Source: an uncultured beta proteobacterium (GTDB lineage: Bacteria; Pseudomonadota; Gammaproteobacteria; Burkholderiales; SG8-39). Taken from it: a DNA stretch of 64,000 bases. The position numbers and the translations under genes were made by a program. The notes below the pieces were generated by a model. That model did not search any database and was not told where the DNA came from. It saw nothing but the letters and a program-made list of their open reading frames with translations. Within the stretch, counting starts at the first letter, position 1, and the number at the start of each line of letters is the position of its first letter. This document shows positions 45,943-64,000 of this stretch, piece by piece. The stretch lies in contig CAIYPG010000056.1 of assembly GCA_903928055.1 (NCBI GenBank), forward strand, positions 3,917 through 67,916. The letters run 5' to 3'.

Positions 45943-46665
45943 TCAGACCTTGCCGATCACGCCTTCGACGAGGTAGTTCATCGATTCGAGAACCGGATCG
46001 GTCTGGATCAGGGCCTTGCCGGCGGGGATGACTTCCTTGCCGGTATTGTCCTTGAGCGGCCCCTTGAAGATGACATAGTCGCCCTTCACCATCGCTGCCT
46101 TGGTGGCATCGGCCTTTTTCTTTGCCGCATCGGAAACAGCCTTGCCGTAAGGCGACATCTTGACAAAGCCTTCCTTGAAACCACCGCGCACGAAATTCTT
46201 GAAAGGCGCGCCCGACAGCGCGTCCTTGACGTGCTGCTCATAGACGGGCGCCCAGTTCCACTCTGCACCGGTGAGATAACCCTTCGGTGCCAGGGGAGCC
46301 TGACTGGCGTGATAACCGCAGGAAAAGATGCCGCGCTTCTCGGCCGTCTCGACGACGACCTTGGGACTGTCGACGTGGCAGGTGATGACATCCACGCCCT
46401 GGTCCACCATGCTGTTGACCGCCTCGGCCTCTTTCACCGGCAGCGACCAGTCGCCGGTCACGATCAACTGGCAGGTGATTTTGGGATCAACACTGCGCGC
46501 GCCCATCAGGAAGGCGTTGCAATTGCGCAGCACCTGCGGAATGGGCTTGGCGGCGATGAAGCCGATTTTCTTGGTCTTGCTGGTGAAGCCGGCGACGATG
46601 CCGTTCAGGTACTGGGCCAACTTGCACGATAAAAATGGCAGCAAAGTTGATTTGCTCGATATCAT
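45943..46665 (-). pseudogene. 5'-truncated BMP-family substrate-binding protein gene (lacks signal peptide and about 135 N-terminal residues)
   Basis: Homology to the full-length SBP at 27755 starts at AQYLNGIVAGF..IPQVLRNCNAF (matching EPAYLAGIIAG..IPEVVRNINAY, about residue 138). The first 15 codons (MISSKSTLLPFLSCK) come from AT-rich unrelated DNA. Confidence 0.7.
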
Positions 46666-46719
46666 CTATATATATATGTATCATAGTGTTGGCTCAACAT
46701 AATCGCGACAAAACAGCAC
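46627..46719. other. compositional junction / rearrangement breakpoint, AT-rich, contains a (TA)5 run
   Basis: GC drops sharply at about 46627 (cgataaaaatggcagcaaagttgatttgctcgatatcatctatatatatatgtatcatag). SBP homology ends here, and the flanks differ in GC and CTAG content. Confidence 0.7.
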
Positions 46720-47163
46720 ATGATTAAACTCCAGCATATAGCTATCTCGGTGAAAGATCCCGAAGCATCGGCAAAGTTCTTCGTTGATGTGATGGAGATG
46801 AAACTCACACGCAAAAATGACGGTCCATTAGCGCAGACGTGCTTTGTTTCCGACGGAAGCATTGAGATTGCTTTGATCCGATTTAAGTCTCCGGAAATGC
46901 TCGGAAAGGAATTCCCAGATAGCTATGAAGGGCTGCACCATATTGGCTTCAACGTAGATAATTTGGAAGAGATAGACAAGCGCATAACTGCGACTGGATT
47001 TCGTCCGCGCAGCGACATTCATACAGCGCGAGATAAACTGTTTGCGGCTGCCGGAGGCAAACCCCAATCAAAGGTGGGGGTCGAGTACAAATACGAGGGT
47101 CCGGGGGGAATCATCTTTGATGTCTCCCAGAAGGGGTGGATTAGGAAGGAAGATGCTCAGTAA
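46720..47163 (+). CDS. VOC-family (glyoxalase/bleomycin-resistance/dioxygenase fold) protein
   Basis: MIKLQHIAISVKDPEASAKFF...GLHHIGFNVDNLEEI...; 147 aa; weak RBS. Confidence 0.8.
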   Translation: MIKLQHIAISVKDPEASAKFFVDVMEMKLTRKNDGPLAQTCFVSDGSIEIALIRFKSPEMLGKEFPDSYEGLHHIGFNVDNLEEIDKRITATGFRPRSDIHTARDKLFAAAGGKPQSKVGVEYKYEGPGGIIFDVSQKGWIRKEDAQ

Positions 47164-47193
47164 TTCCATCCCATCAACGTAGCTAAGCAATTT

Positions 47194-61123: not shown

Positions 61124-61196
61124 CCATCGGATTTATAAATGCCGGCAACAGCCCCATAGGGCTCAACGGAAGAAAGTGAATCTGCAAGGAAATGGT

Positions 61197-62621
61197 ATGA
61201 GCGAGCAGCAAACATACGATGTCGTTTGCATTGGCGGGGGAATCGCCGGTTTAGTTACGGCCGCGCGAGCAAGCGAACTCGGTCTAAAAGTAGCGGTACT
61301 CGAGCGCGGCGCCGAGGAGGACTATCGCTGCAATTCGCGATACTCAGGCGGAGTGATGCACATTTCCTACAAAGATCCCGCCTTACCCAAGGAGGAGCTG
61401 ATCAAGGCGATCCAGGAGATCACCGACAATTACGCTGCACCCGACTTGGTAGAAGCCATTACCCAGAACTGCAAGCGGGGCCTGGACTGGCTGCAGCAGC
61501 AGGGCGCCCGCTTCCTGCGCGTGGATCCCAGCATGCAACGTTCCGATATCGGTTCTCGGGCGTGGATTCTTGCACCAGTGCGGCCACCGGTGACCCAGCT
61601 TGAATGGAAAGGTCGTGGCGCCGACGTGACCCTTAAGGCACTTGAACGAGCACTGCTCAAAGGCGGAGGCAAAGTGTTTCGAGGAACTTCTGCTTCTTCT
61701 CTTTTGATGGAAAACGGTGTTTGCAAGGGTGTTGCCGCAAAGCAGGGAGAATCCAATGTGGACTTTCGGTCGAGGTCCGTGGTGGTCTGCGACGGAGGAT
61801 TTCAAGGTAACGCCAATCTGGTGAAGCTTCACCTATCGCCCGCACCGGCCAAGCTCAAGCAACGGGGGGCCGGCACAGGCATCGGGGACGGCATGCGCAT
61901 GGCGATCGAGGCTGGGGCCGACATCACCTCGCTGGATGGCTTCTATGGCCACGTGCTGTCGCTGGATGCCATGGAGAATGACATGCTCTGGCCCTATCCC
62001 CAACTTGATCTGGTGGCTGCCGCCGGCGTCCTGGTGGACCGATCGGGAAAGCGCTTCTCCGATGAAGGCCTAGGGGGCGTATTCATGGCTAACATTATGG
62101 CCCGCCAGCAGGACCCTCAAGGGATCTTCGCCGTTTGGGACGAGGTGATCTGGCAGGACTCGGGTCGCGCAGCTGCCGTCCCGCCCAACCCGACGCTGGA
62201 GAGACATGGCGGCACTCTGCGAACGGCAAATACCATCGCTGAACTGGCTGTGGCACTGGGGGTAGATCCGGCCGGTCTTGAAAAGACCGTGCGCGATTAC
62301 AACGACGCGGTAACCTCCAACAGGCTGGGAACGCTCTCTCCTGCTCGCTCGGCCAAGCGGCGCAAGGCCGAGGCCATCGTCAAAGCACCCTTTTACGGTG
62401 CTCCGGCCTGTTCGGGCATCACCTATACCATGGGGGGCATTCGCATCGACGGGCAATCTCGCGTGCTTCGCCCGGACCGATCGCCTATACCGGGCCTGTA
62501 TGCAGCTGGCGCCTCCACGGGTGGCCTTGAGGGGGGGCCATGCGTGGGCTACGTGGGCGGACTCATGAAAGGCATTGTCTTTGGCATGTTGGCTGCTGAG
62601 TCCATTGCCGGAAAACGCTAG
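61197..62621 (+). CDS. FAD-binding flavoprotein oxidoreductase (FAD_binding_2: fumarate-reductase / TcuA / KstD-like)
   Basis: MSEQQTYDVVCIGGGIAGLVTAARASELGLKVAVLER dinucleotide fold; C-terminal ..GLYAAGASTGGLEGG.. Confidence 0.85.
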   Translation: MSEQQTYDVVCIGGGIAGLVTAARASELGLKVAVLERGAEEDYRCNSRYSGGVMHISYKDPALPKEELIKAIQEITDNYAAPDLVEAITQNCKRGLDWLQQQGARFLRVDPSMQRSDIGSRAWILAPVRPPVTQLEWKGRGADVTLKALERALLKGGGKVFRGTSASSLLMENGVCKGVAAKQGESNVDFRSRSVVVCDGGFQGNANLVKLHLSPAPAKLKQRGAGTGIGDGMRMAIEAGADITSLDGFYGHVLSLDAMENDMLWPYPQLDLVAAAGVLVDRSGKRFSDEGLGGVFMANIMARQQDPQGIFAVWDEVIWQDSGRAAAVPPNPTLERHGGTLRTANTIAELAVALGVDPAGLEKTVRDYNDAVTSNRLGTLSPARSAKRRKAEAIVKAPFYGAPACSGITYTMGGIRIDGQSRVLRPDRSPIPGLYAAGASTGGLEGGPCVGYVGGLMKGIVFGMLAAESIAGKR

Positions 62622-62641
62622 AGCTTTCGAAAGGACATCCC

Positions 62642-64000
62642 ATGGGTATAGAAGAACAAATCTGCGCGACGCTCTCGCAAGTTCGTTACGAGGACCTTCC
62701 CGAGGCGGCAATTCGCGGCGTCAAGTCGAGCATCCTGGACACCATTGGCGTGATGCTGGTCTCAAGCACCGCTTCTGAGGATTGCATCAAGATGAACGAA
62801 CTAGCCCAGGAGCTGGGTGGCCGCCCGGAAAGCACTGTGATTGGCTTCGGTGACCGGCTGCCAGCACCCATGGCAGCCCTCATCAACGGTGCGTTATGCC
62901 ATCCGCTGGACTACGACGACGTCCATGAAGGCGCTAAAAACCACTCCACAGCACAGACGCTACCTGCGGCCCTGGCAATGGCCCAACGCAAAGGCAAGGT
63001 GAACGGCCGCGACTTGATCACAGCATTGGCTGTAGGCGGAGACTTTTCCTGCCGCATTGCAATGGCGGTCACTGCCGGCCCTACCGAACATGGCTGGCTC
63101 GGTTCGGCCGTATACGGCTCTTTCGGCGCCGCCGCAGCTGCCGGAAAGATCCTTGGCTTTTCCCCTGCGCAAATGAGTAACGCCATCGGGATGGCGTATG
63201 CCCAGACTGGCGGCTCCCGAGAAATGGCCGAAGGCACCTCCTTGCGAGGCGTGAGGGATGGCTTTACTTCCAAAGTTGGGGTGATGTCTGCGCTACTCGC
63301 TGAAAAGGGGCTCACGGGCCCGGGACGCTTCCTGGAAGGTAAGGCGGGCCTTTACAACCTATATTTCCGAGGCAAGTACAACCCAGAGCGGCTCCTTCAT
63401 GAGTTCGGCAAAACCTTCGAGGTGGCTAATGTCAGTTACAAAATCTGGCCGGCTTGCCGTCTGACGCATACCTATGTGGACGCGGCCATCTCCATCATGA
63501 AGGAGCAAAAACTAAGCTACGAAGACGTTAAGGAGGTTCACATTGATGTTAGCCAGTGGGGTAAGGACCTAAGCGAGCCGGCCGAACGACGTCTCATACC
63601 CAAGACTGGAGTGGAAGCCGGCGACAGTATGCAGTTCACTCTAGGTCTGGCCATGGTGCATCAGACGGTTAAGATTGAGCATTTCACCGATACCGCGATT
63701 AAGGACGAGCGCGTCTTGTCTTCAGCTAAGAAAGTGACTCACCATTTCAAGCCGGAACTGCGCGCCGCGGACATGACCCCAGGAGATGTGACCATCAAGA
63801 CCATCCACGGCGGGGAGTTCAGAAAGCGCGTGGAGTTCGCCCCCGGCAGCCCGCAAAATCCGCTGAAAGAAGGCGCGTTGGAGGAGAAATTTCTGGATTG
63901 CCTGACTTACGCAGCCAAGCCCATTAGCAGGCAAAGGGCACAGCAGCTAATAGACAACATCATGAACCTGGAAAAACAGGAAACAGTGGAGAGCATCATT
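62642..64000 (+). CDS. MmgE/PrpD-family protein; 3' end runs off the window
   Basis: Own translation: MGIEEQICATLSQVRYEDLPEAAIRGVKSSILDTIGVMLVSS..HPLDYDDVHE... Open for all 453 codons to position 64000; aagga RBS. Absent from the ORF track because it has no stop codon. Confidence 0.85.
   Translation, partial: MGIEEQICATLSQVRYEDLPEAAIRGVKSSILDTIGVMLVSSTASEDCIKMNELAQELGGRPESTVIGFGDRLPAPMAALINGALCHPLDYDDVHEGAKNHSTAQTLPAALAMAQRKGKVNGRDLITALAVGGDFSCRIAMAVTAGPTEHGWLGSAVYGSFGAAAAAGKILGFSPAQMSNAIGMAYAQTGGSREMAEGTSLRGVRDGFTSKVGVMSALLAEKGLTGPGRFLEGKAGLYNLYFRGKYNPERLLHEFGKTFEVANVSYKIWPACRLTHTYVDAAISIMKEQKLSYEDVKEVHIDVSQWGKDLSEPAERRLIPKTGVEAGDSMQFTLGLAMVHQTVKIEHFTDTAIKDERVLSSAKKVTHHFKPELRAADMTPGDVTIKTIHGGEFRKRVEFAPGSPQNPLKEGALEEKFLDCLTYAAKPISRQRAQQLIDNIMNLEKQETVESII

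Follow-up and report, generated by a model that had tools for sequence, protein, structure and literature searches.

The 64,000-nt stretch of contig CAIYPG010000056.1 analyzed here (the window), which comes from an uncultured betaproteobacterium, is divided by an abrupt step in the frequency of the tetranucleotide CTAG. This word is nearly missing from the first 46.6 kb and common in the remainder. The step is real and highly significant, and it marks the left edge of a block of genes that was most likely acquired, referred to below as the island. We consider it probable (roughly 80%) that the island arrived through horizontal transfer or took the place of a homologous cluster, that it has not yet ameliorated and that a deletion later took place alongside it. 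The CTAG step would then be a read-out of the island's transfer history. The count and the step, their breakdown by codon, the junction, the host-type DNA beyond the far end, the scarcity of CTAG in orthologues and the direction of the gains are shown below; that transfer was the cause, what kind of lineage the donor was and what the island does are what we infer. The two parts of the window are as follows:

1 to 46618, no strand: host-type backbone; GC 63.1%, GC content at third codon positions (GC3) ~0.8, 3 CTAG
46619 to 64000, no strand: compositional island, the part inside the window; GC 55.8%, GC3 ~0.6, 31 CTAG, CTA 10.6% of leucine (Leu) codons

An exact count gave 34 CTAG in the window, 3 within 1-46626 and 31 within 46627-64000, the latter spanning 47779 to 63641. 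This bears out the initial annotation, which had found three on the left and at least 30 on the right at coordinates that were off by 0-11 nt; its statement that base composition predicts more than 100 CTAG in the left part agrees with a computed expectation of 158. For the left part the expectation falls to 45 under a first-order and to 23 under a maximal-order Markov model, against the 3 observed, and for the right part it amounts to 66 by base composition, 34 by the first-order and 32 by the maximal-order Markov model, against 31 observed. With Markov correction the step near 46.6 kb is present within the window as well, the observed/expected (O/E) ratio over both strands rising there from 0.12 to 0.93. 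The binomial probability that at most 3 of the 34 CTAG fall in the left part is 8e-14 by the zero-order and 2e-5 by the maximal-order Markov model. The usage of TAG stop codons had been described as alike on both sides and is so (~7 of 32 on the left, ~5 of 15 on the right; Fisher p=0.48), in a comparison of low power.

At the CTAG step the GC content falls from 63.1% to 55.8%. The maximum-likelihood GC change point lies at 46555 and the structural junction between 46618 and 46619. GC, GC3, tetranucleotide signature, and codon usage all switch inside one intergenic spacer, and tetranucleotide (TETRA) correlations reach 0.67-0.74 among chunks of the left part versus 0.35-0.45 between left chunks and the right part. 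GC content alone is insufficient to explain the CTAG step because, among 2 kb stretches of the left part, the two poorest in GC (4-6 kb and 22-24 kb; GC 0.58-0.59) contain 0 CTAG, whereas 58-64 kb, at GC 0.584, contains 10. Among 98 fetched proteobacterial loci the median CTAG O/E was 0.10 by composition and 0.375 by Markov model; the island has 0.47 by composition, which is above all 98 sampled loci, and 0.93-0.97 by Markov model.

The 50-fold raw CTAG contrast is mostly a contrast in codon usage. In terms of reading frame, 23 of the 31 right-hand CTAGs consist of a CTA Leu codon followed by a codon starting with G, five are read as NCT-AGN and three are TAG stops after a C. On the left, two of the three are TAG stops after a C and the third begins with a CTA codon in an adenosine deaminase gene:

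17538 to 17541, reverse strand: left CTAG no. 1, TAG stop after C of a CoA-transferase family III gene (17538-19187)
29227 to 29230, forward strand: left CTAG no. 2, CTA Leu codon then G in the adenosine deaminase gene (29041-30063), the sole internal coding CTAG in 46.6 kb
40748 to 40751, forward strand: left CTAG no. 3, TAG stop after C of a cytidine/dCMP-deaminase-family gene ending at 40751

A crude gene list had placed the CTAG at 17538 inside a coding sequence; this reading was rejected, as the Pfam domain positions show a stop codon.

CTA accounts for 0.4% of Leu codons in the left part (5 CTA among 12,218 codons) and for 10.6% in the right part (52 among 5,490). When synonymous codons were shuffled within each part, with proteins and codon usage kept, 6.7±2.4 CTAG were expected in the open reading frames (ORFs) of the left part vs 1-2 observed (P about 0.03), and 28.3±4.1 in those of the right part vs 28 observed. 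It is because these shuffles give 6.7 on the left and 28.3 on the right that the raw contrast is ascribed mostly to codon usage. Recoding leads in the same direction: right-hand proteins written with the left usage carry 3.3 CTAG, and left-hand proteins written with the right usage carry 62.5. Codon usage and TA avoidance together account for ~95% of the left deficit relative to base composition (from 158 to ~7). After codon control, a modest, three- to five-fold CTAG-specific avoidance is left in the host and none in the island. Coding CTAG arises chiefly as a CTA Leu codon with G after it; the host hardly ever uses CTA and, in addition, modestly avoids CTAG, and the island does neither. Two other palindromes, AGCT (O/E 0.66) and GTAC (0.74), are also under-represented in the left part, with 1.02 and 0.98 in the island, and the most depleted left-part words by z-score are the non-palindromes CCAA/TTGG and CACA/TGTG.

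The left boundary can be read against metagenome scaffolds of several samples (L001, L002, L005, and L006), which were found by exact-protein look-ups. Three features make up this boundary in the window:

45943 to 46618, reverse strand: truncated Bmp/PnrA-type substrate-binding protein gene, ~140 N-terminal codons gone, Pfam profile positions 111-286 only
46618 to 46619, no strand: deletion junction, 4,154 bp cleanly deleted in comparison with the co-occurring population variant L005 (L005 positions 2235-6388)
46619 to 46719, no strand: AT-rich spacer before the glyoxalase gene, a remnant of the boundary spacer, which measures 433 nt in the undeleted form

In L001, L002, L005, and L006 the extra 4,154 bp join the island-side and the host-side genes. 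The deleted segment comprises two CoA-transferase subunit genes, a rhodanese gene, a GntR/FCD regulator gene, and the promoter and 5' third of the Bmp gene; it is host-like (GC3 0.75, 0 CTAG over these ~4 kb). In the undeleted form a spacer of 433 nt separates the glyoxalase gene from the first CoA-transferase gene, and it is within this spacer that the composition switches. The boundary seen in the window is also the scar of a later deletion that took host-type genes beside the island. No microhomology was found at the junction 46618/46619. A 53-mer spanning this junction had no exact match among the GTDB species representatives, and the genome from which the window comes is therefore not one of them. 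The truncated gene is the first of a Bmp ATP-binding cassette (ABC) transporter operon and is full-length, with 373 aa, in L005, L002, and L006. Because the deletion takes the promoter and the 5' third of this first gene, the downstream nucleoside-type ABC transporter operon (permeases, ATPase, and isochorismatases) is probably silenced in the deletion variant. The boundary spacer of the undeleted variant L005 also holds, at 2340-2372, a terminator-like hairpin (GAAAGCGACC-CTAGT-GGTCGC and then a T run). The nearest called gene is ~200 nt away, the loop contains CTAG, and no Rfam match was found for the hairpin.

The far boundary lies just beyond the window and is covered by four scaffolds of the same population (L131, L134, L135, and L136), which are 99.8% identical to the window over the overlap. 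Here, a GntR/UTRA regulator gene is still island-like (GC3 0.61) and is followed by a 324 nt spacer with two CTAG, past which a DegP-like protease gene and 8.3 kb of host-type DNA follow (GC 0.63-0.66, GC3 0.75-0.86, 0 CTAG). Three of these scaffolds are gap-free across the spacer. Given this return to host composition, the island is ~18.6 kb long and holds 17 genes, with host-type DNA on both flanks; the 17th gene is the GntR/UTRA regulator, with which the island extends ~1.2 kb past the window end in the related scaffolds. On the island side of the right boundary, at 8327-8400 of L131 (and also in L134, L135, and L136), there is a short reverse-strand frame that ends in VPVYGLEEFLEYKSLQLKV and a stop codon, with a CTAG at the stop. 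This frame had no Pfam or PDB match and may be the 3' remnant of a gene cut by the island's insertion. The host-type flank at 2457-4882 of L131 holds a HigB/HigA-like pair (Gp49 toxin family and HTH_3 antitoxin) and a gene of a Y-family DNA polymerase (IMS/DinB).

Homologous clusters, poor in CTAG, were found in a number of other loci, which are compared below with the window's island (identities at the nucleotide (nt) or amino acid (aa) level; CTAG in ORFs as observed vs codon-controlled expectation):

L040: collinear, 84% nt and 88-96% aa; GC3 0.67; 4 CTAG in 14.8 kb; ORFs 1 vs 9.0, P<0.002
L041/L042: 67-83% aa; GC3 0.76 (L042); 0 CTAG; ORFs 0 vs 3.2 (L042)
L043: 67-90% aa; GC3 0.73; 2 CTAG; ORFs 1 vs 4.3
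L047, in the sister metagenome-assembled genome (MAG): 72-89% aa; GC3 0.69; 9 CTAG in the ~12 kb cluster, 12 in the 21 kb locus; ORFs 7 vs 11.2

The sister MAG TH-11nov19-206 matches the left-part genes of the window at 86-93% aa (~90%) and the island genes at only 72-89% (~81%). The closest homologous cluster is not that of the sister MAG: the island shares on average ~91% aa with L040. Moreover, the sister MAG's copy sits in a different context, and the neighboring genes differ in L040, L042, L043, and L047. This mismatch of identities, together with the differing neighbors, argues for movement of the cluster between lineages, subject to the uncertainty of binning. The glyoxalase and SGL genes at the left end of the island lie outside the homologous clusters and yet share the island's composition. 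L016, a relative at 75-85% aa, shows the GntR-Bmp synteny with no island genes within 6 kb upstream, and the contigs known from the closest relatives do not extend far enough to reveal an empty site.

The genes of the island inside the window are listed here; all of its ORFs have metabolic, transport, or regulatory functions:

46720 to 47163, forward strand: glyoxalase/dioxygenase-superfamily protein, 147 aa
47194 to 48108, forward strand: SMP-30/gluconolactonase (SGL) family protein, 304 aa; closest species-representative homologue 69% aa
48129 to 49109, reverse strand: TctC/Bug periplasmic binding protein, 326 aa
49178 to 49951, reverse strand: enoyl-CoA hydratase/isomerase, 257 aa
49967 to 52099, reverse strand: ADP-forming acyl-CoA synthetase, 710 aa
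52158 to 53102, reverse strand: HMG-CoA-lyase family protein, 314 aa; passes the cut-off of the NCBIfam subfamily
53105 to 53506, reverse strand: ChrR-like cupin, 133 aa as called in metagenome contigs; longest ORF to 53602
53732 to 54526, forward strand: enoyl-CoA hydratase/isomerase, 264 aa
54576 to 55547, forward strand: TctC/Bug binding protein, 323 aa
55603 to 56571, forward strand: TctC/Bug binding protein, 322 aa
56641 to 58059, forward strand: MmgE/PrpD family protein, 472 aa
58134 to 58580, forward strand: SnoaL-like protein, 148 aa
58668 to 60092, forward strand: MmgE/PrpD family protein, 474 aa as called in metagenome contigs
60140 to 61123, forward strand: TctC/Bug binding protein, 327 aa
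61197 to 62621, forward strand: FAD-dependent oxidoreductase, 474 aa, resembling TcuA with a score below the cut-off
62642 to 64000, forward strand: MmgE/PrpD family protein, 454 aa in full, cut by the window end

NCBIfam gave no equivalog-level assignment for the island proteins, the HMG-CoA-lyase subfamily being the sole model above its curated cut-off. From these family memberships the island would encode a GntR-regulated carboxylic-acid/acyl-CoA catabolism, in which an acid is taken up, activated to its CoA ester, hydrated or dehydrated, and cleaved by a lyase. With regard to composition, the island has hardly any oligonucleotide signature of its own: its tetranucleotide z-scores are nearly flat (all within about ±2.8) and its two halves correlate at only 0.16. 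Its GC content climbs from ~0.54 (46.6-58 kb) to ~0.58 (58-64 kb). The GC rise and the weakly correlated halves hint at a mosaic. A different arrangement was found in L132 (GROS21-1_SAMEA9560956 scaffold_17229), where positions 2584-5307 hold a 479 aa flavoprotein variant followed by two unannotated ORFs (240 and 174 aa); these ORFs stand in place of a TctC gene, which suggests more structural variation within the island.

The left part carries genes for acyl-CoA dehydrogenases, family III CoA-transferases, TctC/Bug proteins, an ADP-forming acyl-CoA synthetase, a PrpD-family protein, and a porin, as well as two Bmp-type ABC transporters and isochorismatase-family hydrolases. Relatives of these genes at 85-93% aa are found in freshwater Burkholderiales MAGs. 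In the left-part genes that were scanned, no domain of restriction-modification (R-M), dcm, vsr, integrase, or transposase type appeared. The segment 1-22100 holds host-composition paralogues of nearly all of the island's enzyme classes, including a 702 aa ADP-forming acyl-CoA synthetase (11118-13226), enoyl-CoA hydratases, three TctC proteins, and a PrpD-family protein (20627-22081). Since these native paralogues of the same classes keep the host composition, gene function is no explanation for the composition of the island. A further segment, 27755-40751, is a purine/nucleoside salvage-catabolism block with a second Bmp binding protein, the adenosine deaminase, two amidohydrolases (guanine-deaminase-like), urate oxidase (Urate_ox_N), XdhC, xanthine dehydrogenase, and the cytidine/dCMP-deaminase-family protein.

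The host, which carries the island in its chromosome, is a freshwater (lake) Burkholderiales bacterium of ~63% GC. If the island was transferred, the donor would have been a betaproteobacterial lineage with lower GC3, free use of CTA and no CTAG avoidance. The initial annotation had proposed a different origin for the right-hand cluster, and this proposal is strengthened by the switch of composition at both ends, by the presence of the junction in independent assemblies, and by the fact that the sister MAG's cluster is not the closest one. Its further claim of a recent origin holds in part: no amelioration is detectable, but recent is here a relative and undated term. A plasmid origin was considered and dropped, as a distant blastn search of the island against PLSDB gave only short single-gene matches of 63-73%.

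Several points weigh against acquisition by transfer. No integrase, tRNA, insertion sequence (IS) element, or flanking repeat is found at either end of the island, so that no mechanism of transfer can be read from the sequence. Scans of the window and the boundary spacers returned no tRNA or tmRNA and no Rfam family (a single STnc50 match with E=0.42 is due to chance), and the repeats common to both island ends were chance matches of 7-13 nt only. Likewise, no donor was found. In two protein searches and a genome scan the highest identities were 84% nt and, for the acyl-CoA synthetase, 88% aa, and this nearest sequence is itself CTAG-poor. The sister MAG's copy of the cluster also has a lowish GC3 (0.69) and an intermediate CTAG content (7 observed vs ~11 expected), and for this reason part of the compositional oddity may travel with the cluster in general. 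The far boundary was read in sister-variant scaffolds of 99.8% identity and not in the window's own contig, and the sole gene list of a window-type contig, one of 25.6 kb, has a different gene next to GntR; an exact-protein look-up of the 234 aa GntR variant found no record. Finally, the binning of a contig to a MAG is no proof of co-residence, and the parsimony polarization used in the following is subject to a directional bias.

The direction of change at the island's CTAGs was examined in alignments. In a pairwise nucleotide alignment with L040, 26 of 27 window CTAGs correspond to another word in L040, although ~50% would be conserved by chance at 84% identity; the words in L040 are CTGG (13), CCAG (4), TTAG (2), CCAA (2), CTTG (2), and others. 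Of the 23 in-ORF CTAGs that could be placed in codon alignments with L040 and up to three outgroups, none recurs in any homologue, and 15 were polarized as gains on the window branch, mostly by a synonymous change from CTG to CTA before G. By parsimony, which with GC-richer outgroups is biased toward GC>AT, 668 substitutions were inferred on the window branch (466 GC>AT vs 109 AT>GC) and 494 on the L040 branch (292 GC>AT vs 111 AT>GC), the window branch thus being longer and more AT-biased than the L040 branch. CTG changed to CTA in 14 of 88 cases before G and in 10 of 92 cases before other bases. Because this change is equally frequent before G and before other bases, CTAG was not avoided while the island copy diverged. 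One possible, if doubtful, history that these data bring to mind is a journey "there and back": the island would descend from ancestors as CTAG-poor as its homologues all are, have re-accumulated CTAG neutrally in a non-avoiding lineage and have re-entered a strongly avoiding host. If this is true, lake populations could show the rate at which CTAG is purged and the route of its loss (to CCAG/CTGG in the case of very short patch (VSP) repair, in any direction in the case of selection), which would help to settle why CTAG is rare in non-enteric bacteria.

A host system that purges CTAG, either a CTAG-specific R-M system or Vsr/Dcm VSP repair, could also produce the step if the island were new DNA that has not yet been purged. 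The initial annotation had read such a restriction or VSP-type bias from the step, an implication that is not supported in that form, as ~95% of the deficit is codon usage and TA avoidance, the residual is modest and the CCAG/CTGG excess occurs on both sides. The codon-controlled deficits of the left part (1-2 vs 6.7, P about 0.03), L040 (1 vs 9.0, P<0.002), L042 (0 vs 3.2), and L043 (1 vs 4.3) are in line with a purge, but most of the 50-fold raw deficit is codon usage. The same applies to the 17 of 27 window CTAGs whose aligned counterpart in L040 is CTGG or CCAG, the two words that VSP repair would be expected to leave: CTGG is the preferred Leu codon CTG plus G, one synonymous transition away, and the VSP-like pattern is expected anyway because synonymous transitions at Leu codons produce it. 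Furthermore, the change from CTGG to CTAG on the window branch is a gain, that is, opposite to a purge. CCAG/CTGG show a mild excess on the left (O/E 1.15, z=5.3), but the excess is nearly equal in the island (O/E 1.10). R-M or vsr genes of the kind the initial annotation had envisaged were not seen among the scanned left-part genes. CTAG avoidance is in any case widespread and CTAG-specific R-M rare: the word is avoided in ~55% of prokaryotic genomes, ~0.9% have a CTAG-specific R-M system, and CTAG is the one palindrome that most prokaryotes avoid, with or without a cognate R-M system (PMC4687349). A purging system thus appears unlikely; as the chief source of the step, restriction or VSP machinery dedicated to CTAG is not needed and is not supported by the data analyzed here.

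It is quite improbable that the cluster is native and that its composition drifted in place, through relaxed constraint or local AT-biased mutation that reduced GC3 and allowed CTA and CTAG to build up, with no transfer. The two closest MAG relatives do have homologous clusters, which the lineage may accordingly have possessed ancestrally, and the island lacks mobility genes; GC>AT changes are in excess on both the window and the L040 branch, and the sister MAG's cluster copy is also below its flank in GC. Drift in place, however, fits poorly with a composition that switches within spacers of a few hundred bases at both ends and that extends to the glyoxalase and SGL genes, which are not part of the homologous clusters. 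The native paralogous catabolic clusters in the window keep a GC3 of ~0.8 and 0 CTAG, the neighbors of the cluster differ in every genome examined, and the island is ~91% identical (aa) to L040 and ~81% to the sister MAG, whereas the flanks are ~90% identical to that MAG. Selection was also not relaxed in general, because the island ORFs are all intact and, at 84% nt, still conserved to 88-96% aa.

An assembly or binning chimera of two organisms joined at ~46.6 kb, which the metagenomic source and the abrupt change of composition at a truncated gene might suggest, is excluded for practical purposes because the junction is crossed with 0 mismatches by Logan contigs assembled separately from three lake-water runs, whose depth is comparable left and right of it (X1, ~7-8 vs 5-8; X2, ~4-5 on both); the same adjacency is present in at least four ENA samples, in independently assembled scaffolds and in both structural variants, and host-type DNA resumes beyond the island in gap-free scaffolds.

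With transfer or cluster replacement as the favored origin, a single tetranucleotide, read by eye, placed an acquired block to within ~10 nt. CTAG works as a marker since it reflects both the use of a rare codon, CTA, and a modest word-specific avoidance. For annotation, the gain is a delimited 17-gene accessory catabolic island, beside which a 4.15 kb deletion probably inactivates a nucleoside-type ABC transporter operon in one population variant.

Acquired genomic islands of atypical composition reportedly undergo amelioration, a concept associated with Lawrence and Ochman. The present island resembles acquired metabolic islands in its linked accessory genes, in the contrast of GC, GC3, codon, and oligonucleotide usage to both flanks, in its sharp edges, and in its variable context. 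Unlike those, it has no integrase, tRNA target, IS, or direct repeats and is not a classical integrative island; it may have been inserted by illegitimate or homologous recombination. In gene content it is similar to the Bug/TctC-rich catabolic clusters of Burkholderiales, in which orphan TctC proteins stand beside acyl-CoA synthetase, hydratases, lyase, MmgE/PrpD, and a GntR regulator, and of which native paralogous sets are found in the left part; no TctA/TctB membrane components, however, lie inside the island.

The under-representation of CTAG in general has been described (PMC4687349 and works cited there), and also by Bhagwat and McClelland 1992, as cited in PMC5337935. The left part and the 98 proteobacterial loci share in this general prokaryotic deficit, to which the island is an exception. 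The nearest parallel is found in Salmonella, where laterally acquired segments are dense in CTAG and the word undergoes "degeneration" with time (PMC5337935). In both cases, CTAG is scarce in vertically inherited DNA and denser in inserts, and it marks acquisition as well as the stage of amelioration. The Salmonella work concerns enterobacteria with known Vsr/Dcm, in which the loss is ascribed to VSP repair, whereas the host here is an uncultured high-GC betaproteobacterium with no Vsr known, and the contrast is mostly one of CTA codon usage. Both the scarcity of CTAG and the existence of CTAG-dense acquired DNA are thus already established, and the island described here adds no new mechanism but is a new instance of a known phenomenon.

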